Positions 9,260 through 61,322 of a DNA stretch of 64,000 bases are shown here, piece after piece. Source of the stretch: a virus; IMG/VR virus record IMGVR_UViG_3300044995_000220; one strand, written 5' to 3'. The position numbers and the translations under genes were made by a program. A model generated the notes under the pieces. The model saw only the letters and a program-made list of their open reading frames with translations. It made no database searches and had not been told where the DNA came from. Each line of letters begins with the position of its first letter. The first letter of the stretch is position 1.

Positions 9260-10219
9260 TCACTCTTCTTCTTCTTGTGTGTTTTGATTGTGCTCCCTGA
9301 TTGCGTGTTCTTTGATTGCGTCCAGAGACTTAGACATTGTTAGAGCACCTATCGGCGCGCCAATTGCCATGCCAATACCGTGTCTTTTGAGTCCGCTAAT
9401 AAGTGGCTTATTATGGCGATAGATTCCACGTGCCACTCGTTTTGCCTTTCCTTTAATTTTTGCGGCTGCGCGTCCGATAGCTTTGCCTACGCTACGAGCT
9501 TTGTTTTTTAGACTTTTCAATGTATCTTTTGCCGCTGCAACTTTTGGATTAATTAGGACATGGTCTTCGTCATCGACGTTATAGTCATCATCGATTAGTC
9601 CATGTTTAGCAAGTACATATTCGATTGCTGCAACAAGCGCAGGGTCTGGTTCTACTCCATGTTCTTGATGCGTATCTAGTACATGATCAAGTGTGTTGTC
9701 GAGTTCTTCTGCTGTTTTTACGTTTTCAATGATATCAACCATTACTTCAAGGCCAGGTGTGCCACTGTCAGCTAGAGCTGCTGATGCAAGTACAAGTTTT
9801 GGTGTTACAGGTGCATTTCGATTGGCAAGGTTTTCTACAAACATCGCAGCACGCGCGATTTTTTCACCTGTTTCCTCATTATTCAAATTTTCAGTAGCAT
9901 CTCTCATTTTTTTTCTGTGAGCAGCGTTGCTTTCTAGAGCTTTGCTAAAAGCATGACTGAAAACTAGATCACTACCTAGCGTTGCGCCGATTACTACCCC
10001 AGGACCGTGTCTTCTAGCTGCGCGCAGAAGTGATTTACCTAATGAGCGTGACTTCTTATTAACTTTTGATGCTGCGCGGCCTAAGGCTTTACCCGCAGCG
10101 CGCGCTTTGTTTTTAATAGTTTTCAATACATCTTTTGCAGCTGCTTCTTTTGGGTTGTATGCAGCGTTATAGATGTCGTAAAAGTACGGCAGTCTGGAAT
10201 TTTGAGTAATCCATGACAT
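9260..10219 (-). CDS. Modular head-operon protein, paralog of 10334-12514
   Basis: Basic/Gly-zipper - acidic module - basic/Gly-zipper; shares EKIARA...PVTPKLVLASAALA...VKTAEELDNTLDHVLD with its neighbour. Confidence 0.85.
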   Translation of the reverse strand: MSWITQNSRLPYFYDIYNAAYNPKEAAAKDVLKTIKNKARAAGKALGRAASKVNKKSRSLGKSLLRAARRHGPGVVIGATLGSDLVFSHAFSKALESNAAHRKKMRDATENLNNEETGEKIARAAMFVENLANRNAPVTPKLVLASAALADSGTPGLEVMVDIIENVKTAEELDNTLDHVLDTHQEHGVEPDPALVAAIEYVLAKHGLIDDDYNVDDEDHVLINPKVAAAKDTLKSLKNKARSVGKAIGRAAAKIKGKAKRVARGIYRHNKPLISGLKRHGIGMAIGAPIGALTMSKSLDAIKEHAIREHNQNTQEEEE

Positions 10220-10333: not shown

Positions 10334-12514
10334 TCATTCTTGGCGCAGCTGCGCAATGTAACCTGCCCGCAGTTCTTCAGGCATACCAGCAAGTGCAATT
10401 ACGTGAGCACGTTTTTCTTTTTGTGACATCGTTGCAGGGAGTAAACCACCCCACTTTGCGGCCGCAGCTTTTACTTTTTCTTCAAAGTTTACGCGTTTAT
10501 TGTTACGCGCATTTAGCAAAGCGCCAACTTGCCCGACATTTGGCATATCAGTTTCACCGTTGTCTGTGATGTATTCGTCGGGTTCGCGATTTTCTTTGTC
10601 GAGTTCAGCGTTGGCATTGTATTCCGCTGCATCTTCAAGTGTATTTTCGTCCACTTCATTCAGTGAACCGTCTGCTGCTGCTTTCAACACTTCGAGAAGC
10701 TGTGCTTCTTTTTCGTATTCGTTTTCATCGAACTCTTGCTCTTCTTGGTCCGCGCCTCGATTATGCAGAGCATGCATTGCAGCAGCACCGCCAGCTGCGC
10801 CCAGAATTGCACCAACAGCGGCTCCAGGACCATGCCTCTTGGCCGCTCTTCCGACTGCCGCTCCAGCCCTAGCTGCTTGTCTCTTAACCTTTGAAGCTGT
10901 CGTTCCTAGGGTGTTTTTAGTCTTAATTGCTGCACGTCGGATTGCTTTACTTGCGCTACGTGCAGCGCTTCGAATCTTCTTCATTACATCCTTTGCAGCG
11001 GCGACTTTTGCGTCGTCGTTTTCATCAGGTTCATAGTCATTGTCTTCATCAATCAAACCTCGATCTGCGAGTTCTTGTGCGACCGCAGAAACAAGTTTTG
11101 TATTTGGTTTAGCGCCATGCTCTTCTTGTGCATCCAGTACGTCATCAATAGTGTTGTCAAGTTCTTCAGCCGTTTTTACGTTTTGCATAATATGCGCCAT
11201 TACTTCGAGGCCAGGAGTACCTGCCTCGGCAAGCGCTGCTGACGCAAGAACAAGCTTTGGCGTCACAGGTGCTTCGCGATTGGCGAGACCTTCTACGAAC
11301 ATTGTGGCGCGCGCGACTTTTTCAGCTTCCTCTGAAACATCTTCTTCTACATCTTGGTCCACGTCCCGATTATGCAAAGCATGCATTGCAGCAGCACCGC
11401 CAGCTGCGCCCAGAATTGCACCAACAGCGGCTCCAGGACCATGCCTCTTGGCCGCTCTTCCAACTGCTGTTCCAGCCCTAGCTGCCTGTCTCTTAACCTT
11501 TGAAGCTGCCGTTCCTAGGGTGTTTTTAGTCTTAATTGCTGCACGTCGGATTGCTTTACCTGCGCTACGTGCAGCGCTTCGAATTTTCTTCATTACATCC
11601 TTTGCAGCGGCGACTTTTGCTTCGTCGTCGCTGTCATAGTCACTGTCATCGTCACTGTCATCGTCGTAATCCTCATCAATCAAACCGTGATCCGCGAGTA
11701 CCTGTTCAATCGCTGCAACGAGCTCTGGATCAGGTTCAACGCCATGCTCTTGTTGTTTATCTAGTACGTGATCAAGAGTGTTATCGAGTTCTTCGGCAGT
11801 CTTTACGTTCTCAACAATGTGGGCCATCGTTTCAAGGCCAGGAGGACCCCCTTCAGCAAGCGCTGCTGACGCAAGAACAAGCTTTGGCGTCACGGGTGCT
11901 TCACGTGCAGCGAGGTCTTGAATAAACAGCACAGCTCGCGCAATCTTTTCACTCGATTGTTTATCTAAGTGCGTGAGGCTGTTGTCGATCGCGGGGCCTT
12001 TCGGAGCCATTGGGTGAGGAATTTGCCTACCGACTACACCGCCTTCAGGCATGTCGGTGTTACCTGCGCCTACAAGGTATTGGAGCGACGATCGATTTTC
12101 TTCGTCGAGATCAGCGAGTGCGTTAGTTTCCGCTGCGCTCTCTAGCGTGTTAGGTCCAGTATCGTTTAGTGACGCTTCTTCTGCGGTTTTGGCCATCATG
12201 TAGGAGGCAATTTTCATTGCTCGCTCTTCTAACGGCATATAGGATGCCTGCTTTGCCATCGCTTGGACCGAGGCGGAGGGCCCATAGCCGCGCCTTACTG
12301 CCTCATCTGATGCGTCGATGAGCCATTGGCCGATCTTGATGTAGGCATCGTTCGGCAGCGGTCCTTCTAGGATCTGTGGTAGGCCGAGGTCAGTTGAAAT
12401 TTTATCGAAGACTCCGATGGCGAGGTCGTCATCTGCAAAAGGCGCCATGCGTCCAGCATCGGACATGCCGTCAGCCATGCCCTTGAGAAATGTGCGAGTA
12501 AATAGAGTTGACAT
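10334..12514 (-). CDS. Modular head-operon protein with internal 609-bp duplication
   Basis: 726 aa; two tandem copies of acidic module plus basic Gly-zipper module; similar N- and C-terminal motifs (SLN..NTLE.AA..NA...LD.ENR...Y...G.TDMP). Confidence 0.88.
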   Translation of the reverse strand: MSTLFTRTFLKGMADGMSDAGRMAPFADDDLAIGVFDKISTDLGLPQILEGPLPNDAYIKIGQWLIDASDEAVRRGYGPSASVQAMAKQASYMPLEERAMKIASYMMAKTAEEASLNDTGPNTLESAAETNALADLDEENRSSLQYLVGAGNTDMPEGGVVGRQIPHPMAPKGPAIDNSLTHLDKQSSEKIARAVLFIQDLAAREAPVTPKLVLASAALAEGGPPGLETMAHIVENVKTAEELDNTLDHVLDKQQEHGVEPDPELVAAIEQVLADHGLIDEDYDDDSDDDSDYDSDDEAKVAAAKDVMKKIRSAARSAGKAIRRAAIKTKNTLGTAASKVKRQAARAGTAVGRAAKRHGPGAAVGAILGAAGGAAAMHALHNRDVDQDVEEDVSEEAEKVARATMFVEGLANREAPVTPKLVLASAALAEAGTPGLEVMAHIMQNVKTAEELDNTIDDVLDAQEEHGAKPNTKLVSAVAQELADRGLIDEDNDYEPDENDDAKVAAAKDVMKKIRSAARSASKAIRRAAIKTKNTLGTTASKVKRQAARAGAAVGRAAKRHGPGAAVGAILGAAGGAAAMHALHNRGADQEEQEFDENEYEKEAQLLEVLKAAADGSLNEVDENTLEDAAEYNANAELDKENREPDEYITDNGETDMPNVGQVGALLNARNNKRVNFEEKVKAAAAKWGGLLPATMSQKEKRAHVIALAGMPEELRAGYIAQLRQE
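10759..11950. repeat. Intragenic direct duplication, offset 609 bp (203 aa)
   Basis: Blocks 11368-11620 and 10759-11011 are nearly identical at DNA level; the upstream acidic modules are also similar. Confidence 0.9.
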
Positions 12515-12547
12515 AGGTGAAGGTGCTCCTTGGCTCTAGTGTGTAGT

Positions 12548-13225
12548 CTAAGTTGTTTGAGACGATTCGTCAGTGTTAACAGTTTTATTGAGTGGAGAGC
12601 GGCTCTTCCACACACGCATTAGGTGCCGTGGCACATTGAGTTCGAGGTTTTCAGGTGTTGGTGGAGGAGCAAGCTTTGGATCAAACTTTGAACCAACGTA
12701 GCGTGCAGCACCTTGCACTGCGCCTTGTACTGGGATGCCAAGCAAGCCTAGGCGCGCTGTGAAGGGCGCCACTACCATACCTGACACCGCATGCGCAATA
12801 TCGCCACGTCGTGTCGCTGGGTCTCCTTGTAATATAATGTTACCAAGTTCTAGTGCTGGCATGCCAAGTGATAGCGCTTTCACCCATGTCGGAGACCCAG
12901 GTGAAAGATAGAAATCTTTGATTTGTCCTCCTATTGTGCGCGCGAGGCTACCTGTACGCTTGTAGCGCTGGGACAGTTGTTGCGCTAGGGTGATTGGGCT
13001 GCCGAAGATGGCTTCTCGGCCAAATTCAGCGACGTGTTTACCGAATGTTTTGAGTTTATTTGAAAAGCCGCGACCAGCAGGCGCTATTTTGTGCTCACGA
13101 AATAGGTCCTTTAGACCGTATCGGCCAAAAATGCGCGAGCGCGCTGCTGTCTTTACGGTGTTTAGGCGTTCTTCGAAGTCAGAATGTACCACTGGAACCA
13201 TGACGGAATTCCGCGCCGTAAGCAT
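12548..13225 (-). CDS. Hypothetical head-operon protein, basic with hydrophobic C-terminal helices
   Basis: ORF 12548-13270 in track; ATG at 13225 (or 13201) reduces overlap with the upstream RNAP gene; start uncertain. Confidence 0.65.
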   Translation of the reverse strand: MLTARNSVMVPVVHSDFEERLNTVKTAARSRIFGRYGLKDLFREHKIAPAGRGFSNKLKTFGKHVAEFGREAIFGSPITLAQQLSQRYKRTGSLARTIGGQIKDFYLSPGSPTWVKALSLGMPALELGNIILQGDPATRRGDIAHAVSGMVVAPFTARLGLLGIPVQGAVQGAARYVGSKFDPKLAPPPTPENLELNVPRHLMRVWKSRSPLNKTVNTDESSQTT

Positions 13226-14984
13226 ATGCTGGTACGGGATGTGTGCTGTGAATGTTTGAAGTTTCACCAAAATGTGCGGCTTCTAGGATTGTATTTTTGA
13301 GATAACGGTGAGCAAGACGCGCCATCCAATCCTTTTCTAACAAAGGATTCATAGTAAATGGTTTCATTACGAATTCAACTGGGGGCATGCTGCGATTGAT
13401 GTAAACCTCAGTTACGCCATGTGAGGCTAGTTCTCGTGCTAGAGCAGGCGTAATAAGAGTACCAACGGTATGATGCAGCACTTCTTGTCCAAGTCGCTGT
13501 CCGACAGCATTATCTAGCGGTACGCGCGTTGATCCTTCGCGATAGGCTTCGCGAAAGGCGTTATAGTTGATAATGTCGCCTTTTAGTAGTTCAGGGTGGT
13601 TTGGATCTGTGTCAAGTAGACGTACATGATTAATTTCACTTTTTGCAAGTAGTTCGAGATGACGTCGATCAAGATTAATGCCCTCGTTTTTGTAGAGGTT
13701 GTGCATTGCGTCAACAAAATACGCGCGTCCAGCACCGAGGCCTTTATATCCGACTATTTTTGCAGGATGAGGCACGCCATCGGTTAGCGCGTCACCGCGT
13801 TCAACCACGTCACCTTTTTTTACACGCAATGTTAGGTCAGGATGGGTATATACTTTCTTTTCGCCAATATAGATGTAGTGCCCTCCTTGCGGGGCTTTCT
13901 CAATTTTCGTTATAGTTCCATGCTCAGGAGCGAGAACTGCTTCATGTCGAAATGATGCGGGCACTTCTAATAATTGGCGTACACCTTTTAGTCCTGTTGG
14001 AAATTTATTCGTTGATTTGATTGTAAGTGTACCGTGACGTGATGAAAGCGCCATCTGTGTTAACGGTTCAGCCATAGCTTGCGCGGCTCGTACGCCGACA
14101 GGCGTACCTATTTGGTGTAATTTTCCTTTTTCATTGTGCCCTTGGCACATTTGGCAAACACCGCTTTGAGCGATGCACGTCATAGGTGAGCGTACAAGTA
14201 GACGATCAACATGTTTGGCTTTTAGTTGTTGAACAATCTGTGGCGTGACTAGAGTATTGCGGGGTAAACCATGATCAGCCTGTGTAAATCGGTCTAGGAT
14301 ATGGCTGTCATCGATTGACATCTTTACGCCGTTCATGGTTCCGCAGTCAGTTGTCGTCACAACAGTGGAAATAGTGTTTGCAACGAGTACTTTGGCCATT
14401 TCGCCAGGCTCCGATACTGAAATGCGAGCCTTAACTTCGTTTTCGCGGATTTCTGGGCCAGTCATCCAGTACTGCGCTGGAGTGAGTCCTTCGGCGTAAG
14501 ATCGATCAATTAGTTGGTGAATCACGCCATGTTTAGGGTGCACTGTTGCAAGCGGCGTTGCGACAATTTTCATAAGTTGGGCTGGATTCCCGCGCGCGCC
14601 AGATAATGCCATATGTGTCATTGAACCGGGGTGTTTTTTAGTATGAGCGAGTAGTTTCTCTTGTGTTTCAACAATCAATCGTTGACGCGCTGTTGGGTCT
14701 TTGAGTTTTTCAAGTTTTGCAAGTGCGGGACGAATGATAGCATCACGTTCTTTGTAATTAGGCTCGATGTCGTCTAAACCGACGGAAATTCCTTCAAGCG
14801 TTGCAATTTCGTCCCCACGTCGTTTAAGTGCTTGTATTGTTGAAACGTATTTTTGTGGGTCAGTTTTGGCAAGATTGACAAGATGGTCATGTAGTTCTTT
14901 GTTTGTAATTGGGCCACGGATTTCGTAGCCCTTAGGCATTACATCATTGATTAAAAAATGTCCAACTGTCGTCGCCATAGGCAA
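13179..14984 (-). CDS. rpoC: RNA polymerase beta' subunit, C-terminal half (RpoC2-like)
   Basis: SGARGN, bridge-helix region YAEGLTPAQYW...PGEMAKVLV, DCGT plus SPMTC...GVCQMCQG zinc site, trigger loop GVRAAQAMAEPLTQMALSSRH, GLKGVRQLLE. ATG at 14978 is the likelier start. Confidence 0.93.
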   Translation of the reverse strand: MPMATTVGHFLINDVMPKGYEIRGPITNKELHDHLVNLAKTDPQKYVSTIQALKRRGDEIATLEGISVGLDDIEPNYKERDAIIRPALAKLEKLKDPTARQRLIVETQEKLLAHTKKHPGSMTHMALSGARGNPAQLMKIVATPLATVHPKHGVIHQLIDRSYAEGLTPAQYWMTGPEIRENEVKARISVSEPGEMAKVLVANTISTVVTTTDCGTMNGVKMSIDDSHILDRFTQADHGLPRNTLVTPQIVQQLKAKHVDRLLVRSPMTCIAQSGVCQMCQGHNEKGKLHQIGTPVGVRAAQAMAEPLTQMALSSRHGTLTIKSTNKFPTGLKGVRQLLEVPASFRHEAVLAPEHGTITKIEKAPQGGHYIYIGEKKVYTHPDLTLRVKKGDVVERGDALTDGVPHPAKIVGYKGLGAGRAYFVDAMHNLYKNEGINLDRRHLELLAKSEINHVRLLDTDPNHPELLKGDIINYNAFREAYREGSTRVPLDNAVGQRLGQEVLHHTVGTLITPALARELASHGVTEVYINRSMPPVEFVMKPFTMNPLLEKDWMARLAHRYLKNTILEAAHFGETSNIHSTHPVPAYAYGAEFRHGSSGTF

Positions 14985-15010
14985 AGACTACGTGTTCTCA
15001 GTGGCGCATG

Positions 15011-15349
15011 TTATTGTTGAAATGAGGCTCTTTGCCCTGCTCCGAACACTCGACCTGCACCATATGCTGCTGCGCCAGTGGCTGCCGCAGCGCCGAGAGC
15101 TTTGCCCGCAGCCGGCAAACCACCTGCTCGCTGAAACGCCTTAGCACCAGCTGCAATGCCTTTACCAAGATTTTGCATCATACCGCCGCGTCCACGCTGA
15201 TATGCTTTGGCACCAGTAGTCCATGCGCGTGTTGCTGCGTTGCCGAGTGTAGAAAGTACGTTACCAATTTTATTCAGGCCGTAAAGGGTCAAGATTTTAT
15301 AAGCTCCACGTGCTCGTGCGTTATCAAGTGCTTTTTTCGTAAGCATCAA
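15011..15349 (-). CDS. Small basic Gly/Ala-rich protein
   Basis: 112 aa; cationic amphipathic segment followed by GKALGAAAATGAAAYGAG hydrophobic stretch. Confidence 0.7.
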   Translation of the reverse strand: MMLTKKALDNARARGAYKILTLYGLNKIGNVLSTLGNAATRAWTTGAKAYQRGRGGMMQNLGKGIAAGAKAFQRAGGLPAAGKALGAAAATGAAAYGAGRVFGAGQRASFQQ

Positions 15350-15729
15350 ACTCCTCCGTACGAAATGTTAGGACTTAGCCCGTTGCGATCACCAGGTTCA
15401 TTTGGTAACCCCATAGAGGCACCCCAAATTGGATCACCTGTCCGTTTTGGGGTTATTGGAGTGTCACCGTAGCCAAAATTATTTTCAGAGAAAAGTTTAG
15501 CAAGCGCTTCGATTGGTTCACCAGACTCATCAAGCAGAGCGTATTTAGTAGCAACTTTGCGGATTGCACGCGCTCTAACTTCGTTAGCAAATTTTTGTCT
15601 TGCAGCAGTGTTGAAGCTTTTTGTTACGCCGTAAAAGCCTGGGTCTTTTTCGAAGTGAAAGCCTCTTTGACGTTTTTTTAGTCGTGTAGTTATGCCGCGT
15701 ACAATGTTATTTAAATCTGCCATCAGCAT
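15346..15729 (-). CDS. Hypothetical protein (127 aa)
   Basis: Fills operon gap with overlapping start/stop codons. Confidence 0.7.
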   Translation of the reverse strand: MLMADLNNIVRGITTRLKKRQRGFHFEKDPGFYGVTKSFNTAARQKFANEVRARAIRKVATKYALLDESGEPIEALAKLFSENNFGYGDTPITPKRTGDPIWGASMGLPNEPGDRNGLSPNISYGGV

Positions 15730-16208
15730 CCACTCCGAAGGTAGCGGCGCATATCGTCAGCGTGCTGTTGATCTATGAAGGCACCTTCTTGTGCTAAGGC
15801 GTTGAGTGCTACGTCATTGGTAGTTGCTCGGAATAGCTCTGACCATTTAGCTACAACTTCAAGTTCCATAGAGAGTAGTGTTTTGAATACCGCACGAGGG
15901 TCATTTAGTCCGACAATCGCTGGAGGTGACGGATTGGCGTGTGCGTCTGCGCCAAGCGCTGTGATCTTCTTGTTCAATTTATATATAGATTCACGCTCTT
16001 CTTTGATGTGGTCTTGGAAATGTTGGTAGATCCCGTCGCGATAAAACGCTCGTAACTGGTCGCCGTAGTGAATGTACGCAAGTAGTAACGAATACTTCTT
16101 TGTTAGAATGTCCTGGAGGCGCGAGACATGCGCGCACATTGCTGGCGTGGCGTTTTCAAAGGACTTTGATTTTGTAGGGTCAAGTAAGTCATCTAAGAAG
16201 TCGAACAT
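15723..16208 (-). CDS. Ferritin/bacterioferritin-like four-helix-bundle protein (degenerate ferroxidase centre)
   Basis: LLAYIHY...FQDHIKEERESIYKLNKKITALGADA...LLSMELEVV...IDQQHAD follows the Bfr pattern (QY..H / EE..H / RI..LGG.P / E / EE.H) with several ligands changed. Confidence 0.7.
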   Translation of the reverse strand: MFDFLDDLLDPTKSKSFENATPAMCAHVSRLQDILTKKYSLLLAYIHYGDQLRAFYRDGIYQHFQDHIKEERESIYKLNKKITALGADAHANPSPPAIVGLNDPRAVFKTLLSMELEVVAKWSELFRATTNDVALNALAQEGAFIDQQHADDMRRYLRSGC

Positions 16209-16221
16209 TAGAGTCCTCGTT

Positions 16222-19200
16222 TTAGTTATTTACGCCTGTCAGCAACTCTGGCGGAAAATAGAATAAGGCTTCGTCAGGGCTAATGGAATAAACTGGCGCA
16301 GTGAGGTGTGGTCCTTCACTATAGTTATCAGCGCGCTTTTCGGTTTCGTTTTCAATTTCGATAGCGTCTGATAGCTTCAATTCGCCACGTCGATATGCTG
16401 CGAGTGCGTCTTCTCTCGTTTTGAATTTGCGCACTGGTCCAGTAGGAATTGTGTGTTTTGATGCGAGCGTGAATGCGATGATAGCTTCGTGTTGCGGAAA
16501 GACCATAAGTTTGTTCCGTTGTTGATCACTTAACAATAGGTTGCTAAGAGTCATTTGCTTAGCTTCTTGCACAGCTTCAGGACCGATTGGGAAGTGTACC
16601 TGCAAAGTGTCACCGTCGTAGTCTAGGTTCATACCTTTTTCGGCGAATGAGGACACGCGTATTGTTTTGCCGGGTACGGGTTTAGCGTACGCAGCGATAA
16701 TCGACCCTCGATGCAGTGTGGGCGCTCGATTGATAAGTACTGGGCGCTCGCGAATTTCTTCCAACAGCGCATTTCGCGCGGCAGGCGCGCGTTCATTGAC
16801 TAGTTCACGCGCTTGGAGCGCAGGGTAACCGGTGCGGATCAACCGCGCGACAATTAGTTTGTCAAGTGCCTGCCACAGCATATCCTCCGGAATACCAACT
16901 TCGTCCATACTCAAGTTTGAATCGGGTACAGCAGTACCACGTCCCGATACATCTTGTGTATGACGCATTAGCTTACGCTGGAAAAAACCTCCTTTTGGTG
17001 TACCGACGCCTGAAATATTTGCAAGTAAGCCTTTAACTTTCTGTTGTTGAAGTTTTGGGTCGCGAGGCAGCGCTATACCATATAGCTCTTCGACTTTTTC
17101 GTAGAGATCCAAACGATGTTTGCCTAAATCTGATGGTACAGCTGTTGTCTTCAGCGTTTTGTTCGAATCAAGAAGTTGACTGTAGAGTTTATTTACGTCG
17201 GATACCATTAGTTGCGACGGATCGTGAACGCTTGGCAAAATTGGACGGAATACTGGAGGAATGACTGGTACCTTGCTGATCACGTAGGCGTCGGCGGGGT
17301 TTAAATTATGCTTTTGAAGTGCTTCTAAGTATTTGATTTGCTTGACTACATCGTCGAGCGCAGCTCCTTTGGCGGTTTTGAGCTGTTCACGTAGTTCACG
17401 AAGTTTACGCGGTACATCGATCTTCGAGAGTTCATGGCGAAACCATGCACCCCCGTTAGTTCGCAGTGCGGTCCTGAATTGTGTTTCAGTCATGCCGAGC
17501 AGACGGCGTACGGGCTCTTCGAATACAGGATTTGGGATAGGCTCGTGCAAATCAATATGAGAAAAAAGTGCGCCTTGTAGACCGCCGGTCTTACGAGGAT
17601 CAAATAGACCGCCGGGCATTGGTTTGAGATCTTTCGCGCGCACCGTTGTGTTATTTTCGATTGCTCCCGAACTGCGCGTTAGCACATCTTTGTCAGTCAT
17701 TGGTAGTAGCGAGAATTTTGAACCACGCTTATCTACCTTTACGCCTGCGCCTTCTAGCATTCCAATAAACTTATTGAAGGCAAACGATGGCTTTGGTTCT
17801 GGTAGCGGCAATCCCATTTGCACGGCTTTCCAATATTCATCGTTCTTTTGACCACGAACTGTTGTTGCTTCGCGCAGAAAGCTGCGTGCGTTGTGTGCGA
17901 GCAGCGCATCAAATTCCATTTTACCGATGCTTTTAGCGCTTTCGTCTCCCCCAGTCTTGAGAGGCTGTTCGTTGATGTCATAGGGTCCGACACCGTGACC
18001 AGAGAAATTGGTGTCAGTACTTTTGAACAGTTTATAAATATACTGTTTACCGACTAGTACGCCTTTGCTGTCGGGCCCAATAATTTTACGTTTGAGTATT
18101 GGATCGTAGAGTACTTCTTTGTCTTTGACGCCGTGTTTGTTCAGTAGGTCACGGGCCCATTTGACAGCGTCATGGCCTGCCGTGTTGTCATATACGATTG
18201 GTTTTCCTGTTTTTTCAGCGACTTTTGAAACAGCTGTTTCAATAATTTGCGCGGGGTTGATACGTGATACGACTCCGGCCGACGTCATTAACAGATCAAG
18301 TGGACGCCCTTGTTCATCACGCAGCATTTCGTGGTCTGGTACGATTTTGGCGACGACACCCTTATTACCGTAGCGACCTGCGAGCTTGTCGCCAATTTGC
18401 ATAGGTTCGCGTGTTTTTACAAGGATTGTAATTTGTTTATTTGAGCGTACTACATCGATAATTTCACCAGGCACACTGTGTTCCCAAGTCAGTGCGATGT
18501 CTTTGAATGGTTTGACAAGTGATTTACTAAGACGCCCAAGTATGGCGTCGGTACCAGTTACAGATTGTTTCATTAGGCCCGCTACAAGTAAGTCTTTCGG
18601 ATCAACTTTTGTGCCTTTTTTGATTACACCGCTCTCATCGAGTTTACTGTACATTGACGCGGGGTATTTAGCACCGTAGTAAAGTTGATGCTTTGCACGG
18701 TTCAGTTCGGTGCCCGTACTAATCGGAAAAACCTCGCGATACATGTGTTCGCTGGTTAGTTTTCGCGCTGCGGACTCCGAAATTACGACGGCATCGTTTG
18801 AGTTGTAGCCGTAGTACGGTAAGTATCCAACGAGTAGATTTTTGCCTAATGCAAGCACACTGTTACGCGTGTAGTTTGACTCTGCAAGGCGCTGACCTTC
18901 TTTAACTTTGTCACCAGGCTTTACGCTGACAGTGTGATCTAGGAACGTTTTCGAAGGAAACGGAAATTTTTGATAGTAGGGCACCTTAATGAGTCCAGCG
19001 TCGCCTGCTGCTGCTCGTTTTTCAGCATGTGGCTTAATGTATATGAATTGATTGTCGATCTTCGCGACGGTCCCCGAAACCGGTGCAGTCGGCACGATCA
19101 TATGGCCATAAATTGTTTCAAATGAATGGCCATCTGGATGATGTGATTTAACTTGCACAAGTGGTGCTTCGCGCTCCACGAGCGGCAACGCTTGCGTGCC

Positions 19201-20730
19201 CATCTTGGATCCCATGATCGCGCGGTTACCTTGGATTGAGTGGATCAATGGGATTAGCGTTGTTGCTGGTGAGTACATGTACTTGACGTGATCAAGTTGG
19301 TGTGTCACCTGACTTGCAGGTACACGTGTTTGTTTGCCATTGACGAATGCGTCGACTGTGCCTTTGAGTTCTTGGTGAGGAAACGCAACGACATATTTGT
19401 GCAAGTCGCCAGCTCGTATAAATTCCTCTTTACCAGTCTTTACATTGCGTAGTACTGTGTAGAGGTTACCTTTGTCGTCACGGTGCGCGGCAATTGTTGC
19501 CCGAATATCTACACCTGAGTGGTTTGATTCAGGTGTGCGAATTGGATCCAGTGCACCAAAGTGCGTGTTGTGGATCATGCGCGCGTCCAGGGGGATTGCG
19601 CGGTCTGAGGGAATTCCGCCTTCACCGAGACTCGTCACTTTCACTGCGTGATCGATGATTTCCATTGGATTGATTCCCATGGGAACGCTAGAAAGTGACG
19701 ATGTTGTGACGAACTTACGGATTGCATCCGAGAACGGCGCAGGTTTAAGGGCGTCTCGGATTACGTTTTTGTTTGTTAGTGCTAGTTTTGCTTTAGGTAT
19801 CCATTGACGAGAGGACAGACGAATTCGTTCTGAGATGAAATCATCAAGCGCATGAAATGTTTTGAATTTTAGTGAGTCAGTGTCATCAACTTGCGCTTTG
19901 CCAGCATGGACATCGAGTATTTTCTTCGCAGCGCTAAGCAGCGTCTCAGGTGCGACCTTAGTGTGCGCAGAACCAAGTGTTTCGCTCGTTACTTCAGGAT
20001 CAAGCGTTGATTGGTTATAGTGCTTTTTGATAGCTTCGACTTTTGCTTCATGTGACGCGTTTGGATCCAGCACAGCTGGATGCTCTAGCTTTGTGTAAAG
20101 CTTGTTAATTGTTGGCGCAATTTGGTGTCCGTACTCTTTTTCATTGGCGCGCGCTACGCCTTCGCCTAAGTGCTTAGCAATTTGGCTGTGCTCAACGCCA
20201 AGGCCTCGCAATACGGCGTAAAGAGGCAAATTTGACGTACCATATTGAAGGTAGAATGTTCCTTTATCAGGATTAAATGTGAGATTGAAGTTTTTTCCGC
20301 GCCCGAGGTTGAATACTGTTTTGAGTTCGCCGTTGTCAGCTCGCTGGGTGTAAACTCCCGGTTTGCGGCGTAATTGGTTTGCAATTTGATATTCGTTGCC
20401 ATCTACGATGATGGTGTGGCGCGATGTTAAGTACGGTATGTGCGCTAGCGTAAAGTTTTTTGCTTCGTCGAGAATTTTTCCGTTTGCGTCTTTAAGTACA
20501 AGTGTGCCTTTGACTGGTTCATAAAGTGATGAACCTTTCATAAGTGCGTTGTATTCGTCCGATGGTGCAAAATCTTGTGAATTTACACGTACATCTTTGA
20601 TTTCCAGCGTTTTACCCTTGAGTTCAAGGGGGAAAACAGTAGTTAACGCCTTAGTTGTCTTTTCGTGCAGTTTTTGGCGAAGTGTAGCTGCGCTGGTCAG
20701 TACGGGCGTTGGTGCACTCATCTCAATCAA
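16222..20730 (-). CDS. rpoB: RNA polymerase beta subunit fused to N-terminal half of beta'
   Basis: beta motifs: IIVDGNEYQIANQLRRKPG, INPMEIIDH..VTSLGEGG, HFGALDPIRTPES, NRAIMGSKM, GYNSNDAVVISE, GDKLAGRYGNKGVV, SRIN, GKMEFDALLAH. From about 17730: beta' motifs GGLFDP, PVIPPVFRP, SDVNKLY, VLINRAPTLHR, NLDYDGD. ATG at 20721 is the likelier start. Confidence 0.95.
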   Translation of the reverse strand: MIEMSAPTPVLTSAATLRQKLHEKTTKALTTVFPLELKGKTLEIKDVRVNSQDFAPSDEYNALMKGSSLYEPVKGTLVLKDANGKILDEAKNFTLAHIPYLTSRHTIIVDGNEYQIANQLRRKPGVYTQRADNGELKTVFNLGRGKNFNLTFNPDKGTFYLQYGTSNLPLYAVLRGLGVEHSQIAKHLGEGVARANEKEYGHQIAPTINKLYTKLEHPAVLDPNASHEAKVEAIKKHYNQSTLDPEVTSETLGSAHTKVAPETLLSAAKKILDVHAGKAQVDDTDSLKFKTFHALDDFISERIRLSSRQWIPKAKLALTNKNVIRDALKPAPFSDAIRKFVTTSSLSSVPMGINPMEIIDHAVKVTSLGEGGIPSDRAIPLDARMIHNTHFGALDPIRTPESNHSGVDIRATIAAHRDDKGNLYTVLRNVKTGKEEFIRAGDLHKYVVAFPHQELKGTVDAFVNGKQTRVPASQVTHQLDHVKYMYSPATTLIPLIHSIQGNRAIMGSKMGTQALPLVEREAPLVQVKSHHPDGHSFETIYGHMIVPTAPVSGTVAKIDNQFIYIKPHAEKRAAAGDAGLIKVPYYQKFPFPSKTFLDHTVSVKPGDKVKEGQRLAESNYTRNSVLALGKNLLVGYLPYYGYNSNDAVVISESAARKLTSEHMYREVFPISTGTELNRAKHQLYYGAKYPASMYSKLDESGVIKKGTKVDPKDLLVAGLMKQSVTGTDAILGRLSKSLVKPFKDIALTWEHSVPGEIIDVVRSNKQITILVKTREPMQIGDKLAGRYGNKGVVAKIVPDHEMLRDEQGRPLDLLMTSAGVVSRINPAQIIETAVSKVAEKTGKPIVYDNTAGHDAVKWARDLLNKHGVKDKEVLYDPILKRKIIGPDSKGVLVGKQYIYKLFKSTDTNFSGHGVGPYDINEQPLKTGGDESAKSIGKMEFDALLAHNARSFLREATTVRGQKNDEYWKAVQMGLPLPEPKPSFAFNKFIGMLEGAGVKVDKRGSKFSLLPMTDKDVLTRSSGAIENNTTVRAKDLKPMPGGLFDPRKTGGLQGALFSHIDLHEPIPNPVFEEPVRRLLGMTETQFRTALRTNGGAWFRHELSKIDVPRKLRELREQLKTAKGAALDDVVKQIKYLEALQKHNLNPADAYVISKVPVIPPVFRPILPSVHDPSQLMVSDVNKLYSQLLDSNKTLKTTAVPSDLGKHRLDLYEKVEELYGIALPRDPKLQQQKVKGLLANISGVGTPKGGFFQRKLMRHTQDVSGRGTAVPDSNLSMDEVGIPEDMLWQALDKLIVARLIRTGYPALQARELVNERAPAARNALLEEIRERPVLINRAPTLHRGSIIAAYAKPVPGKTIRVSSFAEKGMNLDYDGDTLQVHFPIGPEAVQEAKQMTLSNLLLSDQQRNKLMVFPQHEAIIAFTLASKHTIPTGPVRKFKTREDALAAYRRGELKLSDAIEIENETEKRADNYSEGPHLTAPVYSISPDEALFYFPPELLTGVNN

Positions 20731-20758
20731 AATTTAAAGACAATACGTGGTAAAAGTT

Positions 20759-20784
20759 TTTAGCGGGGTTTTGTGTCCGCTAAA
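20759..20784. other. Intergenic hairpin upstream of RNAP gene (8-bp stem, 10-nt loop)
   Basis: tttagcgg (20759-20766) pairs with ccgctaaa (20777-20784). Confidence 0.5.
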
Positions 20785-20871
20785 GGAGGTGAGAGTGACG
20801 TGCTAATACGCGCGGTTTTTCGTTTTGTCATTTTTGTTGCGCGGTGATTGTGATAATGATTGCTGCGCACT

Positions 20872-20909
20872 TCGGGGTGTGCCGTGGTTACAACCGCGGC
20901 ACACCCCGA
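20872..20909. other. Near-perfect 38-bp palindrome over the stop codon of 20888-21298
   Basis: tcggggtgtgccgtggtt-ac-aaccgcggcacaccccga: 18-bp arms with one mismatch/wobble. Confidence 0.85.
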
Positions 20910-21298
20910 GAACGAATCCGCGCTTCATTTTGCGTTACTTCGGGTTCTTCCCACGCGATCGTAACGTAGATTTCACCTCGATCATTTGAAAATTCGCGTG
21001 CGTGTAGTTTCCAGGGCCCTGCATCGCCTGCGTTTCGCAGCCGGTTTATTAGTTCAATATACTCGTTGTGCCGCGTGTGTGGACAAATGTAATCGCCTTG
21101 TTCAGGTAATAGTTCAGGTCGTTCTTGAATTGCATCTTTGCAACGATTACAACTGTTCCAAGGCCGAAACACTGAGTATGTTTCGTGAAAAACTTTCATC
21201 CGGCGCGGGGGTTCTTCCGCCGGTTCTGAAAAGCCTATACGTGGTCCTCGGATAGTCTCTTCGTGTTTTGCTTGTTGTGAGTTCATCCAGTCTTCCAT
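20888..21298 (-). CDS. Hypothetical protein with putative Zn ligands
   Basis: 136 aa; CNRC and CPH..H motifs; directly downstream of the portal gene. Confidence 0.7.
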   Translation of the reverse strand: MEDWMNSQQAKHEETIRGPRIGFSEPAEEPPRRMKVFHETYSVFRPWNSCNRCKDAIQERPELLPEQGDYICPHTRHNEYIELINRLRNAGDAGPWKLHAREFSNDRGEIYVTIAWEEPEVTQNEARIRSRGVPRL

Positions 21299-21299
21299 T

Positions 21300-23021
21300 T
21301 CAACCCTGCGCCTTCATGTAAGCCAATTGGTTTTGCTCTATTTGTTGTAGCAATTCTTTTGTGATGCAGTACATAATGAAGTCTTCGCCTTTGAGTGAAT
21401 CAAGCCGTGAACGCCTTGTACCTGCGTCGTATTGTGCTAGTTCTTCAGCGATTGGTTGTGCTTTGGCGATGATTGCCTGTTGATCGTACGCGAAACTGCT
21501 CCGCGATTGAAGCGCTTGTTGCTGTGCTTGTATTGAAAGTGATTGTTGAAGTTTTTGAAGTGCAACTTGGGTTTCTTGTTCAGCCCGAGTGTCGGCTAGA
21601 GTATCTTCGCGTCGCTGTTTACGTTCATGATCAAGATCAATGTCAAGCATTTCTGCCATTGTGGTGTTCGAAATTAGTTGGCTTTGCCATAGTTGAATTT
21701 TGAGTTGTTTATTTTCGATGTCGTCAATCATTTTGAAATCAGCAAGGCGCATTTTGATTGACGCCCAACCCATGAATTGTGCAACTTTGCGTTCAATCCA
21801 CTGGATGAGTGCGTTGAGATTTTCAATATGTGTTTGTAGTTGGTTTTCAATCATTCGCAATGTGATTTCACCTCGGGTTTGCCCAAGACCCCCTGTAAGA
21901 AACTCCATCGGTACGCCGAGTGAAAGTACAATTGCTCTTTCAGCTTCTTGTAGTTCGCCGAGAGTGAGCAACGCACGACCTTCACCGCCAATGTTCTGAA
22001 CGCCGACAGGTACAGGCGAAAATTGAATACGTAGCGGATCTCGACGGAACAATCGCCAGTTACGTTCCATTTCCATTTTCCAACGATCAAGTGGAATGGT
22101 CGTAATAGGGTCTCCTTGTCCGCTAGCCGCTATTGGATGGATGATTCTAAATGGTGTGATGTATTCGAGTGCAATCGCTTCATTTGCTCGTCGAAGTATT
22201 GCTGTAAAGAGGAAATTTTTAATTGCACTCGTGATTGGAGGAAATCCCCATTGAGCTTGTACACCAGCAGGTCCTGGCATTTTTAGATGATAAAGTGAAC
22301 CTTCATCAAATCGAAAAGTCTTGCGCTCTTGCATTGCGCGCAAGATCTCCATCGGCATGTGATTGATGAATGTTTTGTTGCCGGCTCGCACCTTTGCTAT
22401 GTCATCGCGTGGGATCTGGTAGTAATAGACACTTTCGCCAGTGACTCGGTTGTGTTCAATGTCAATTAATTTTGGATCCCATCGAATTAGTGTGAGCTTA
22501 GTAGGGTCTTTGAGTTTGTAGTCTTCAACCTTTGAGATCACACCTTTGCGTTTACACTGCTTGCAGTCGTGCGTGAATTGAAGTTTCGGGAGATTGAATT
22601 TGTATGATGCCGCTGAGATGTCTTCTCGTGTGCCGCAGTACTCACATACCAGTTCGCGTTTGATCGGCTCATAAACTGAAACGAACGCGTTGCCATATAG
22701 CCAGACGTCGTAGCTTACTAGCGTTAGAAAGCCTTTGAGTCGTAGAGTTTCTTCGAAGAGTCTTTTGTGGCGCGCTTTTTCTTCATCCGAATTCGATTCG
22801 TAAATGAATCGTGTGATTGGGTATTCGCCGAATTTACGGACTACGCCGTAAATATGCGCTGAATGGAATCCAAGGTATTCTGCCCATTTGAACAGGTCTT
22901 TGAGCTTCCGAGGTACAAACCCCGTTAAGTAGTCAAACATGGGGTTCGCATGCGACATCGCATGACGTCCTCCGAAACCCAGCAGCATATCGTCATAGTT
23001 CACTCCGCTGTCGATGGTCAT
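21300..23021 (-). CDS. Portal protein
   Basis: VWLYGNAFVS, WGFPPI, ALEYITPFRII, LGVPMEFL patterns typical of phage portals; CEYC/CKQC zinc-ribbon insertion; Gln-rich C-terminal helix. ATG at 23021 preferred over GTG at 23048. Confidence 0.8.
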   Translation of the reverse strand: MTIDSGVNYDDMLLGFGGRHAMSHANPMFDYLTGFVPRKLKDLFKWAEYLGFHSAHIYGVVRKFGEYPITRFIYESNSDEEKARHKRLFEETLRLKGFLTLVSYDVWLYGNAFVSVYEPIKRELVCEYCGTREDISAASYKFNLPKLQFTHDCKQCKRKGVISKVEDYKLKDPTKLTLIRWDPKLIDIEHNRVTGESVYYYQIPRDDIAKVRAGNKTFINHMPMEILRAMQERKTFRFDEGSLYHLKMPGPAGVQAQWGFPPITSAIKNFLFTAILRRANEAIALEYITPFRIIHPIAASGQGDPITTIPLDRWKMEMERNWRLFRRDPLRIQFSPVPVGVQNIGGEGRALLTLGELQEAERAIVLSLGVPMEFLTGGLGQTRGEITLRMIENQLQTHIENLNALIQWIERKVAQFMGWASIKMRLADFKMIDDIENKQLKIQLWQSQLISNTTMAEMLDIDLDHERKQRREDTLADTRAEQETQVALQKLQQSLSIQAQQQALQSRSSFAYDQQAIIAKAQPIAEELAQYDAGTRRSRLDSLKGEDFIMYCITKELLQQIEQNQLAYMKAQG

Positions 23022-23048
23022 TGCGTCTCTAACCGAAAGAAGTAACAC

Positions 23049-28154: not shown

Positions 28155-28979
28155 TTAACTAAGTATATCTGCGAGGCTCTTGATCTCTTCTTCAGAGAGA
28201 TGAGCTCGTAGACGATTGAGAGCGCGTTTTTGTATTCCTTCCACGCGCGCGGCAGTCATTTGTGAACCGTCGATCTCGTACAGGATCTGACCAATTGTCC
28301 GCGCGTCTTTTGGCTCACCTCCGCGAAGTCCAAACGCGTAGATCAATACTAGCCGCTCAACTCGCGTTAGCTGTGCTTGCGCTAGTAGGGCTAGGGGGTC
28401 TACGCGTCGGCGTTGAACGTCGCTTTCGATGTCGACGTTGTCATCTATAATTACAACGTTGTCAATCGACGCGATTGAAGGTTCTTCGAAGTCTTCGACG
28501 GGCTCACCGAGTACTTGCTTTCTTTCTTTTTCGACACGTGTGCGCCGCATCGCTTTCCGGGTGTGGTTTGGAACGTGAACCGTTCGCATCCGGTAAATGA
28601 CTTCTTGCATTTTTACATTGACCCAGTTCGCTGCGTACGTGAGAAAGCGATTACCGCGCGCAGGGTCAAATAGCGTGATTGCATGGAGTAACCCTTCATA
28701 GCCTGCCGAAAGCAGTTCGGCGAACAATGCGTCGTCGTGCGCTTTGCGCCTCGCTTGTTTGATTACAAAACGGTAGTAACCACTTGCGATCGCATTGCGC
28801 AACGTATCACGCAGTTTTTGGAACTGCTCACGTTCGACTGGGTTGGTCGCTAACTCTGCACGTGTTCGTGCTTCTTGGTATGCTGTGAATAGAGTATGCT
28901 CCTCTTGCGCCGTTCGGATGGGATGGTTGCCCACATCGCGGAAATGCAGATCTAGCAGCGCGCTCGTTGTCTTAGACAT
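28155..28979 (-). CDS. RNA polymerase sigma-70-family factor (sigma 1)
   Basis: Region 1.2-like LHFRDVGNHPIRTAQEE, region 2 GLLHAITLFDPARGNRFLTYAANWV, region 4 RVERLVLIYAFGLRGGEPK. ATG at 28979 preferred over track start 29051. Confidence 0.88.
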   Translation of the reverse strand: MSKTTSALLDLHFRDVGNHPIRTAQEEHTLFTAYQEARTRAELATNPVEREQFQKLRDTLRNAIASGYYRFVIKQARRKAHDDALFAELLSAGYEGLLHAITLFDPARGNRFLTYAANWVNVKMQEVIYRMRTVHVPNHTRKAMRRTRVEKERKQVLGEPVEDFEEPSIASIDNVVIIDDNVDIESDVQRRRVDPLALLAQAQLTRVERLVLIYAFGLRGGEPKDARTIGQILYEIDGSQMTAARVEGIQKRALNRLRAHLSEEEIKSLADILS

Positions 28980-29067
28980 TTTGCTAAAATCTTTACATAG
29001 CGCCAGACACAGGGTAAACCAACTATCTGCTGTGACTGGCGCTTCAGTCACTTACAAGGAGAGCATC

Positions 29068-38473: not shown

Positions 38474-38514
38474 AAAATGTAGACTCATCTATATGAACAA
38501 ATAAAAAACAGATA

Positions 38515-38537
38515 CTCCACGGTATAAGTACGTGGAG
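38515..38537 (+). promoter_or_regulatory. Hairpin occluding the RBS of the PcfJ-like gene
   Basis: ctccacg (38515-38521) pairs with cgtggag (38531-38537), which contains the GGAG 5 nt before ATG 38543; loop contains TATAAG. Confidence 0.35.
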
Positions 38538-38542
38538 ACGAC

Positions 38543-60623: not shown

Positions 60624-61322
60624 TTATCGTAACCGCTGCGCTTTCTCTAGCAACGCTTTGATTTGATTAAGCTGATACGAAAGCTGTCCTTGCGTCAATC
60701 CTGTGGCGCGCATGATTTCCTTACCGCTTTTTACGGCACTACCTCCGTACCCAGTGCGCATCTCGAATATTTTTTTCTGTATTGGCGTCATATCGTGATA
60801 AGCGAGGTGTACGACCTCAGGGTCGTCCATATATTGTATGAAGGTAGGCCCTTCACCTGATTCCATGAACTCTTTTTTGCCCACCAAATCTACAACTTCA
60901 CGAAGCTTTGATGGAGGTACCCTCATGTAATCGGCGATATCGTTGAGTGATGGAGGCCTACCATGTAAATCTTCGAGCTCACGGTATGCCCTGTTGTAGT
61001 TGTTAAACAGCAATCGTTTTTGCTCAGGCACACCAAGCGTCGACTGCCTCGCGTACGCCGTACGTGAAAGTTTTTGAAGTTGATTAGTCAAATGCGTTGA
61101 AAGTGACGCTCCTGCTGTTGGGCTATAAGTTTGAAACGCTTTGATAGCTAACAGCTTTGCTTCATTTTCAAGCATTGTCTGTGGTACAACGGCAGACCAG
61201 CGCATAGTCTCCCGTCGAATTACCGGCCACATCTGCTTGATCAGAGCTTCAAGATCAGCTGGAGACTGCGTTCGTTTCCACTGCCGCCACAGTTCTAAAT
61301 CACGATTCTTTGTGTCGTCCAT
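60624..61322 (-). CDS. RNA polymerase sigma-70-family factor (sigma 2)
   Basis: Region 2 AIKAFQTYSPTAGASLSTHL, region 3 LEDLHGRPPSLNDIADYM, region 4 MTPIQKKIFEMRTG...SGKEIMRATGLTQGQLS. Confidence 0.82.
   Translation of the reverse strand: MDDTKNRDLELWRQWKRTQSPADLEALIKQMWPVIRRETMRWSAVVPQTMLENEAKLLAIKAFQTYSPTAGASLSTHLTNQLQKLSRTAYARQSTLGVPEQKRLLFNNYNRAYRELEDLHGRPPSLNDIADYMRVPPSKLREVVDLVGKKEFMESGEGPTFIQYMDDPEVVHLAYHDMTPIQKKIFEMRTGYGGSAVKSGKEIMRATGLTQGQLSYQLNQIKALLEKAQRLR

Follow-up and report, generated by a model that had tools for sequence, protein, structure and literature searches.

A phage RNA polymerase with beta fused to the N-terminal half of beta-prime and the C-terminal half encoded by a separate gene

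Introduction

How the large subunits of RNA polymerase (RNAP) are assembled is an old question, and every cellular RNAP known to us needs an alpha (Rpb3/11) platform. The question returns in a particular form in a stretch of viral DNA of 64,000 nucleotides (nt) from IMG/VR record IMGVR_UViG_3300044995_000220, here called the window. In it, a gene for a bacterial-type beta subunit runs on into the first half of beta-prime, and the second half of beta-prime is a gene of its own. It belongs to an IMG/VR viral contig of 123 kb with a completeness of about 71%, from a hot-spring/microbial-mat metagenome. Is this layout real, how does it relate to described RNAPs, and what enzyme would it form?

Two genes encode beta and a divided beta-prime

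The fused gene, with product P0001, is an open reading frame (ORF) of 1502 amino acids (aa) at 16222-20730 on the minus strand. No stop occurs between the RpoB domains and the N-terminal half of beta-prime (beta-prime-N), and the frame continues up to and beyond the beta-prime catalytic loop. The second gene, with product P0002, is an ORF of 601 aa at 13179-14984, also on the minus strand, and carries the C-terminal half (beta-prime-C). An earlier reading made from the letters alone (the sequence-only reading) had placed both ORFs at these positions and the junction at about 17730, which aligns to nt 17713-17733. The likely start codons were set at the ATG at nt 20721 for P0001 (Met4, ~1499 aa) and the ATG at nt 14978 for P0002 (Met3, ~599 aa), because homologues begin there. 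The parts of the two genes are listed below with their basis (DPBB, double-psi beta-barrel).

16222..20730, minus strand: fused RNAP gene P0001 (ORF, Pfam; 35% identity to gp206 of Salmonella phage Arash from end to end)
17731..20721, minus strand: beta portion, aa 4-1000 (Pfam, alignment with Escherichia coli RpoB)
17713..17733, minus strand: beta/beta-prime junction, aa 1000-1006 (alignments)
16225..17715, minus strand: beta-prime-N portion, aa 1006-1502, with clamp, clamp helices and DPBB with catalytic loop (alignments)
17107..17247, minus strand: clamp helices, aa 1162-1208, predicted sigma docking surface (predicted complex)
16609..16629, minus strand: catalytic loop NLDYDGD, aa 1368-1374 (alignment)
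13179..14984, minus strand: beta-prime-C gene P0002 (Pfam, rpoC_TIGR 549-1070, alignment)
about 14370-14459, minus strand: bridge helix in P0002 (alignment)
about 14145-14345, minus strand: second Zn site in P0002, Cys214, 270, 277 and 280 (alignment)
about 14025-14096, minus strand: trigger loop in P0002, without SI3 insert (alignment)

Profile searches bore out the fusion of beta to beta-prime-N, and the separate beta-prime-C gene, in a phage. P0001 matched Rpb2_2, Rpb2_3 and Rpb2_6 at aa 122-925 and Rpb1_1 and Rpb1_2 at aa 1115-1394, and P0002 matched Rpb1_4 and Rpb1_5. Scores in P0001 were 152.9 bits for PF00562 (Rpb2_6, DPBB with sandwich-barrel hybrid motif; gathering threshold 23.4), 28 bits for Rpb2_3 (threshold 21) and 73.7 bits for PF00623 (threshold 25.3); PF04998 scored 59.3 bits in P0002 (threshold 28.5). 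Along the bacterial rpoC profile TIGR02386, P0001 aa 1093-1465 covered positions 163-539 and P0002 aa 4-483 covered positions 549-1070. The two products together make up one beta-prime, with no sequence missing at the break. Alignment to RpoB, RpoC, RpoC1 and RpoC2 profiles, a check that the sequence-only reading had proposed, confirmed both the domain content and the gapless break.

By hidden Markov model (HMM) score, the enzyme is clearly of bacterial type. The bacterial RpoB profile gave 330 bits in P0001 against 113 bits for archaeal B, and the rpoC profile gave 172 and 191 bits in the two chains against 51 for archaeal A' and 19 for A''. All scores lay under every NCBIfam equivalog cut-off by a wide margin (330 against 896 bits and 301 against 801 bits for the bacterial RpoB equivalogs NF001616 and TIGR02013), and identity to any bacterial RNAP matched was only 22-28%. 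On these scores, the beta portion is an RpoB homologue below orthologue-grade membership. No solved structure came from the phage RNAP family; the nearest were Thermus, cyanobacterial and Bacillus RNAPs.

Residue-level anatomy

Both chains were compared with E. coli RpoB and RpoC by alignment. At the junction, the last beta helix (GAGVKVD) passes via ~6 residues into the first conserved beta-prime strand, and neither the E. coli beta LEDE nor beta-prime residues 1-14 have a counterpart in P0001. Junction length is identical in the main clade of relatives, in Arash, in Vibrio phage D69 and in the IMG/VR genome G002, and the same sequence pattern occurs in P0317, an unsplit single-chain relative. 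The N-terminal beta-prime Zn ribbon (E. coli C70, C72, C85, C88) is deleted (32 residues, near nt 17570), a loss common to every lineage of the phage RNAP family examined. The Zn site recognized in the sequence-only reading is the C-terminal (second) one, which is kept in P0002.

The catalytic residues of P0001 are retained. All three Asp of the loop NLDYDGD are conserved, the beta-prime DPBB motif NRAPTLHR is present, and the beta DPBB active-site lysines (E. coli K1065, K1073) are conserved in the motif GNKG...AKI (GRYGNKGVVAKI aligned to GRHGNKGVISKI). The clamp helices and the flap-tip helix are also retained. Rifampicin-contact positions are mostly changed (Q513S, F514V, D516M, R529K, S531T), and the enzyme is probably insensitive to rifampicin.

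P0001 follows beta-prime to about E. coli residue 553 and then adds a tail of its own, 35-40 residues long, that is missing from the Arash and D69 proteins; P0002 starts at the equivalent of E. coli T572. By this alignment, the break falls in the surface loop equivalent to E. coli beta-prime 553-571. In P0002, Cys214, 270, 277 and 280 and the trigger-loop His317 are invariant in the alignment. Its helices are divergent overall, including a bridge helix that is present but divergent, and its C-terminal 120 aa are family-specific.

Conservation and spread of the layout

Logan contigs from two runs matched 13000-21000 exactly. Assembly across the junction held in a strain-variant contig from a third run, which differed by 149 substitutions and 0 indels over 13000-20033; all these runs come from one sample and, taken alone, give weak support. 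None of the RNA runs contained this DNA. All of the best 120 clusters (90% identity; 55-98% identical) combined PF00562 with PF00623, and all 120 stopped at the same query point. An intact junction with a separate ~600-aa beta-prime-C 0.56-5.7 kb downstream was found in 75 of the best 80 IMG/VR loci. Single stops in the junction matches of L126 and L147 were set aside as probable overruns of the match past the gene stop, the open frames being at least 1465 aa. The same fused-and-split layout occurs in Arash and in Vibrio phages D69, D181 and D148, at 30-36% identity. Since junction and break are conserved across relatives, chance and artefact are excluded: the layout is real and not an assembly artefact.

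The window fits the pattern of an unnamed Arash-like clade, with a beta::beta-prime-N of about 1450-1530 aa (without inserts) and a ~600-aa beta-prime-C downstream of the portal gene. The combination that the sequence-only reading called unusual prevails in a very large phage family with cultured members. The layout is common and annotated, yet no description of it, or of a split intein in a phage RNAP, was found in the openly accessible literature. In the Arash report (PMC10585845), the two genes are annotated only as 'beta' and 'beta-prime' and the architecture is not discussed. A bacterial donor was sought and rejected: the best 80 GTDB loci were all ordinary rpoC at 22-28% identity, with no close relative and no prophage copy.

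Comparison with known RNA polymerases

Arash (gp206, 1525 aa, and gp216, 606 aa; OQ632216) and D69 (1527 and 609 aa) have the two-gene layout of the window and share with it the junction, the Zn-ribbon loss, the portal neighbour and the sigma pair. They form a different sub-clade, with the catalytic loop AADYDGD against NLDYDGD in the window, and P0002 is 30-33% identical to gp216 and to its D69 counterpart. Unsplit phage RNAPs such as P0317 differ in that beta-prime is continuous across the window's break point.

The phiKZ/AR9-type enzymes are likewise phage homologues of beta and beta-prime, with beta-prime split after the DPBB and without alpha or omega. According to a report on them (PMC7598289), their beta is split in 2-3 pieces and unfused to beta-prime, each genome has two RNAP sets, one form is packaged in the virion, and there is no sigma homologue. 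In the window, by contrast, beta is continuous and fused, and one RNAP set is accompanied by two sigma-70-family genes. Sequence similarity to the phiKZ/AR9-type RNAPs is 22-25%, over parts only.

The sequence-only reading had set the combination apart from the cellular fusions and from the cyanobacterial split, and the profile coordinates agree. Helicobacter and Wolbachia RpoBC (NF007172, NF011417) join beta and beta-prime in frame and in rpoB to rpoC order, as in the window. They keep a whole beta-prime with its Zn ribbon, whereas P0001 ends at rpoC_TIGR position 539 of 1147 and scores 318 bits against an RpoBC fusion equivalog cut-off of 5372 bits. The unsplit phage relatives would count as one-ORF RpoBC in the cellular sense; P0001 does not. 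Cyanobacterial and plastid RpoC1 (gamma) and RpoC2 divide beta-prime after the catalytic DPBB, as in the window, but gamma is unfused to beta and RpoC2 has a large insertion. The claim of a split at roughly the cyanobacterial position holds for the neighbourhood and fails for the exact point: P0001 reaches 563-573 of 619-626 gamma positions, so that its break lies about 51-55 residues upstream of the gamma/beta'' break.

Membership in the reported deep-branching metagenomic lineage (mReC), also suggested in the sequence-only reading, was not borne out. The window's clade resembles mReC in coming from tailed-phage contigs with RNAP subunits recognizable by cellular HMMs. The screen that defined mReC (Weinheimer & Aylward 2020) selected for beta and beta-prime as separate proteins, both 800 aa or longer, and for an NADxDGD motif. 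Compared via this published filter only, the clade differs in its NLDYDGD, AADYDGD or AADFDGD loop and its 601-aa beta-prime-C. Beta/beta-prime HMMs do match the window's RNAP, unlike the crAss-like single-chain RNAPs, which the literature describes as unrecognizable by such models. As judged from gene layout and profiles, the fused-and-split combination differs from all described cellular and phage arrangements.

Family structure and probable order of events

An exhaustive search with P0002 returned 1134 clusters (50% identity) at E <= 1e-30. Among the best 150 representatives, free-standing beta-prime-C was the majority form, others had a beta-prime-C with inteins or added domains, and 16 were unsplit, with beta, beta-prime-N and beta-prime-C running on in a single chain of about 2,000-2,900 aa. 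The unsplit P0317 (2033 aa) shares 35% identity with P0001 across 1431 residues, as well as the junction and the loss of the Zn ribbon, and is encoded on a phage-like contig with a portal homologue upstream. As side observations, P0251 carries a GNAT acetyltransferase fused at the C-terminus of beta-prime-C, and P0376 an anti-CBASS Acb1-like 2H phosphoesterase at its N-terminus.

In a beta-prime-C tree rooted on ten bacteria (the root being assumed), the phage family formed one group with support 100. All split forms fell in one clade (SH-like approximate likelihood ratio test 98 under LG+C20; 95 in FastTree), with 16 of 16 unsplit forms outside. In the concatenated beta and beta-prime tree, whose outgroup was bacterial only, without archaeal or eukaryotic sequences, a long branch parted 18 phage sequences from 23 bacteria of 8 phyla. 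With the unsplit single chains placed outside the split clade, fusion probably came before the split. A bacterial-type rpoB-rpoC pair would have been captured by a phage and fused to one chain; beta-prime would have been split after the DPBB later, in the ancestor of the split clade, with unsplit ~2,030-aa relatives surviving.

A separate observation concerns an unverified contig of 17 kb from human faeces, L185 (MT836236, 'Bacteriophage sp.'). It has RNAP ORFs of 504, 745 and 1449 aa, a further arrangement, at ~27% identity, and could be bacterial DNA or another phage RNAP lineage.

Inteins, introns and inserted domains

In one lineage, the division lies at the active site itself. The ORF for beta and beta-prime-N in the G002-type lineage is 1770 aa long and ends in the catalytic loop AADFDGD, after which comes an intein block A of 32 residues with Ser at its start. 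Its partner, a 905-aa ORF about 104 kb away on the opposite strand (counted from an upstream GTG; 897 aa from the likely ATG), opens with the remainder of the intein (Pfam Intein_splicing positions 44-153 of 155, with block B motif), ending ...VYD before Thr+1, and continues with the rest of beta-prime, without the window's break. This arrangement was found in five IMG/VR contigs, including the complete 161.6-kb genome with terminal repeats, G002. The loci of the lineage are as follows.

L175:6957-9674: P0123, in the split-intein lineage
L184:753-6065: split-intein lineage, in G002 (G002:C1 about 41.8-47.1 kb)
L173, L174, L176, L177: further loci of the lineage

With an N-piece of 32 aa and a C-piece of about 250 aa, this is, by its motifs, an atypical split intein. 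The predicted trans-splicing would yield a full beta::beta-prime chain of about 2,390 aa.

Main-clade relatives carry intein-like inserts of about 510-535 aa with LAGLIDADG domains directly after D[YF]DGD; these do not start with Cys or Ser.

Query position 1374, catalytic-loop inserts: P0021-P0024, P0040, P0053, P0078, P0084, P0099, P0111

Further intein-like LAGLIDADG inserts lie at query positions about 402 and 784 (P0004, P0036), so that such elements recur at at least three conserved sites of the fused gene. In Vibrio phage D181 (OZ196140), a group I intron (L188:5006-5286; Rfam RF00028, 100.7 bits) interrupts the fused gene at about aa 514, with a homing endonuclease gene after it; in the record, each piece is entered as a hypothetical protein of its own. 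D69, a near-identical phage, is without the intron. The fused RNAP gene is a hot spot for selfish elements, which makes it plausible that the window's split arose via insertion of a mobile element.

Another insert, found in many family members at query position ~574 in beta (P0034, P0030, P0012 and others), resembles inorganic pyrophosphatases (PF18823, in some cases PF00719) and in some proteins comes with a P-loop kinase (AAA_18). As part of an RNA polymerase, a pyrophosphatase would clear the polymerase's own product. P0001 is without this insert.

An Rfam scan of window positions 12500-21500 gave no intron, and no intein motif was present in P0001 or P0002 (no Hint/intein match, no Ser/Cys...DT block). 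On these grounds, the two chains of the window are most likely separate proteins.

Sigma factors, the search for alpha and omega, and particle proteins

The sequence-only reading had recognized no alpha or omega gene in the window, and none was detected by HMM. Neither the 123-kb record nor any of three complete related genomes (Arash, D69, G001) had an alpha match (PF01000, PF01193), and omega (PF01192) gave only a sub-threshold 13.7-bit match inside a 505-aa ORF. The same three genomes and the window's record each hold one RNAP set (one PF00562 match). Two sigma-70-family genes are present in the window.

60624..61322, minus strand: 232-aa sigma-70-family factor (Pfam Sigma70_r3, phrog_351)
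28155..29051, minus strand: 298-aa sigma-70-family factor, regions 2 to 4 (Pfam Sigma70_r2, NCBIfam RpoS/RpoD-like)

The 232-aa sigma is an orthologue of Arash gp10 (Arash 11904-12560; E 8e-25), whose gene sits among structural genes, and its family turns up on contigs equal in size to the RNAP-bearing ones. The 298-aa sigma is the counterpart of Arash gp196 and matches Arash 120959-121303. The 232-aa protein is a candidate initiation factor of the phage RNAP. In a predicted complex with P0001 1000-1502 it reached a score of 0.65, whereas none of three controls exceeded 0.01, and the predicted interface, residues 163-209 of chain 1 in the model, corresponds to the clamp helices (aa 1162-1208). 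In a benchmark, 58 of 80 solved complexes attained this mark, as did 2 of 110 mismatched pairs; the counts hold only roughly, custom alignments having been used here. Such docking points to likeness to the known sigma/beta-prime contact rather than to binding, and may reflect memory of solved complexes.

In mass spectrometry of purified Arash particles, gp206 ranked first by number of spectra (3516, 100% coverage), above the major capsid protein, and gp216, the sigma gp10 and the helicase gp217 were also detected (PMC10585845). Arash is the one member of the clade for which such particle data are known.

Genes between and around the RNA polymerase genes

The three small genes that the sequence-only reading saw between the RNAP genes are present as ORFs of 161, 127 and 112 aa, and the portal gene lies upstream.

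15723..16208, minus strand: ferritin-like 161-aa gene (Pfam PF00210, E 1.6e-10)
15346..15729, minus strand: 127-aa gene with no assigned function (no Pfam/PHROG match)
15011..15349, minus strand: 112-aa hydrophobic gene with no assigned function (no Pfam/PHROG match)
21300..23048, minus strand: portal gene, directly upstream of the RNAP module (tblastn)

From 20730 to 13179, the ORFs overlap or are at most 26 nt apart, and no terminator-like site was found on the coding strand. Scans for sigma-70-type promoters and terminators near the RNAP genes gave fewer sites than shuffled controls. The 127-aa and 112-aa genes and the neighbours u136 and d240 had no Pfam, PHROG or NCBIfam match, and the ferritin-like gene had none in NCBIfam. 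The protein Atlas gave no usable match for the 127-aa gene and, for the 112-aa protein, only membrane-protein fragments with TM below 0.5.

The ferritin-like gene recurs at the same place in part of the main clade only, and the other two genes are kept in close relatives only. The gap holds nine unrelated genes in Arash, some on the other strand, and two in D69. As gap content differs among relatives, we read the small genes as variable cargo and not as subunits. A role as conserved RNAP partners was rejected, the genes being absent or replaced in Arash, D69 and many IMG/VR loci. The portal neighbour is constant: tblastn matched the Arash portal gp204 (33%) and those of D69, G002 and the unsplit-lineage locus L189 (E 7e-78), and the RNAP module adjoins the portal gene in all family lineages checked.

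An SNF2-family helicase gene (23049-25109, plus strand) lies divergently beside the portal/RNAP module. Arash, too, has helicase genes close to its RNAP genes, and in L189 an SNF2 gene neighbours the unsplit RNAP; a RapA-like transcription partner is possible. Downstream of beta-prime-C, the minus-strand genes at 10334-12514 and 9260-10219 share internally repeated modules (their tblastn segments match mutually), with glycine-zipper-like stretches and a weak PrsW-like match, and may encode head-internal or ejection proteins. Window positions 38001-40000 have a GC content of 0.60, against about 0.47-0.50 elsewhere, across a 541-aa ORF with a PcfJ-like domain that may have been acquired recently. 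No tRNA genes were found in the 64-kb window. Long open frames upstream of beta-prime-C in GC-rich relatives were rejected as N-terminal extensions and taken as Arg/Pro/Ser-rich noise.

Discussion

We consider it probable that the two genes encode a phage-owned, alpha-less, sigma-dependent and probably virion-carried two-chain RNAP of bacterial type, with its whole catalytic core. Chain 1 (~1499 aa, about 166 kDa) comprises beta joined by the ~6-residue junction to beta-prime-N, with clamp, clamp helices and the DPBB with DYDGD; chain 2 (~599 aa, about 66 kDa) supplies the bridge helix, the second Zn site and the trigger loop. We infer that these chains form an active core between them, lacking both alpha and omega, the covalent tether from beta to beta-prime replacing part of the assembly role of the alpha platform. 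The 232-aa sigma, and perhaps later the 298-aa sigma, would bind the clamp helices and direct promoter recognition. Core and sigma would be packed in the capsid, as the Arash proteome suggests, and delivered with the DNA, allowing early transcription without the host polymerase.

Other explanations can be weighed against this one. An assembly error, a frameshift or pseudogene decay as the source of the fusion or the split has a negligible probability: the window comes from a single metagenome contig with all runs from one sample, but isolate genomes and hundreds of independent contigs have the same junction and break, the strain contig, 2% divergent, is free of indels over 7 kb, and the catalytic motifs are all intact. 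Peptides, moreover, cover 100% of Arash gp206 (PMC10585845). It is also highly improbable that the products are joined after translation or transcription, by trans-splicing or by an intron spanning the small genes, into a single full-length beta::beta-prime chain. The split intein of the sister lineage G002, the D181 group I intron and the unsplit relatives make such joining conceivable. Yet the P0001 end and P0002 start are extein-like and lack intein signatures, the region is without an Rfam intron, and the gap of 0.56-5.7 kb in relatives is filled with protein-coding genes that vary from one to the next and in Arash lie partly on the opposite strand.

A hybrid core, with the phage chains built onto host alpha2 (and omega) and/or the phage sigmas working for the host polymerase core, would explain why no phage alpha or omega was found, and the regions homologous to bacterial beta and beta-prime are largely retained; phage sigmas are also known classically for redirecting host RNAP. 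We regard it as rather unlikely. The hosts are apparently diverse (Salmonella, Vibrio, hot-spring mat; GC-rich relatives) and the RNAP is only 25-28% identical to any bacterial one, which lowers the chance that a fit to host alpha is conserved. The gp10 orthologue is listed in Arash particles together with the RNAP chains, and docking was predicted on the phage's own clamp helices. Enzymes of the phiKZ/AR9 type work without alpha or omega (PMC7598289). An ordinary non-virion RNAP, made after infection for middle or late transcription, with carry-over behind the Arash particle signal, appears unlikely. One RNAP set per genome must serve later transcription too, and the Arash authors themselves raise carry-over and list many metabolic enzymes in the particles (PMC10585845). 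Against this stand the gp206 spectra, which outnumber those of every other protein including the major capsid protein, the position of the RNAP genes beside the portal gene in every lineage, and a gp10-type sigma encoded among structural genes.

Several points weigh against a self-sufficient, virion-carried two-chain core. Phage sigmas usually redirect the host core, and the docking result may merely reflect family likeness. The record that holds the window is incomplete (about 71%), an alpha or omega analogue could be too divergent for HMMs to pick up, and the phage enzyme could recruit these subunits from the host. The prediction of rifampicin insensitivity draws solely on substitutions at contact positions. 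For the order of events, branches are long and rooting assumes bacteria as a valid outgroup; the G002 lineage, unsplit at the window's break, nests inside the split clade, and therefore two split events or one reversal are needed. As to packaging, the Arash authors allow for carry-over of abundant infection proteins, and the particle list includes ribonucleotide reductases among its many enzymes (PMC10585845).

More tentatively, and with less than even confidence, the family may be a natural series of minimal bacterial-type RNAP cores of one chain, two chains, or two chains joined by a split intein. These would assemble without alpha or omega via the beta::beta-prime tether, travel in the capsid together with a sigma of their own and carry out all transcription of ~160-190-kb phages without host polymerase, the G002 catalytic loop being completed only by protein trans-splicing.

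A bacterial-type core appears here to manage without alpha, with beta tethered to beta-prime, and the family offers it in natural forms of one chain, two chains, and two chains with a split intein at the active site. Published screens that demand separate full-length beta and beta-prime, or the canonical NADFDGD, overlook this family of 1134 clusters. It retains sigma-70-type factors, unlike the phiKZ/AR9 enzymes, and has a cultured member on Salmonella, Arash, which makes the open questions directly testable. If the proposed reading is true, the locus would encode a compact two- or three-protein, sigma-directed transcription system orthogonal to the host, and would be a second, independent case of a virion-carried multisubunit RNAP.

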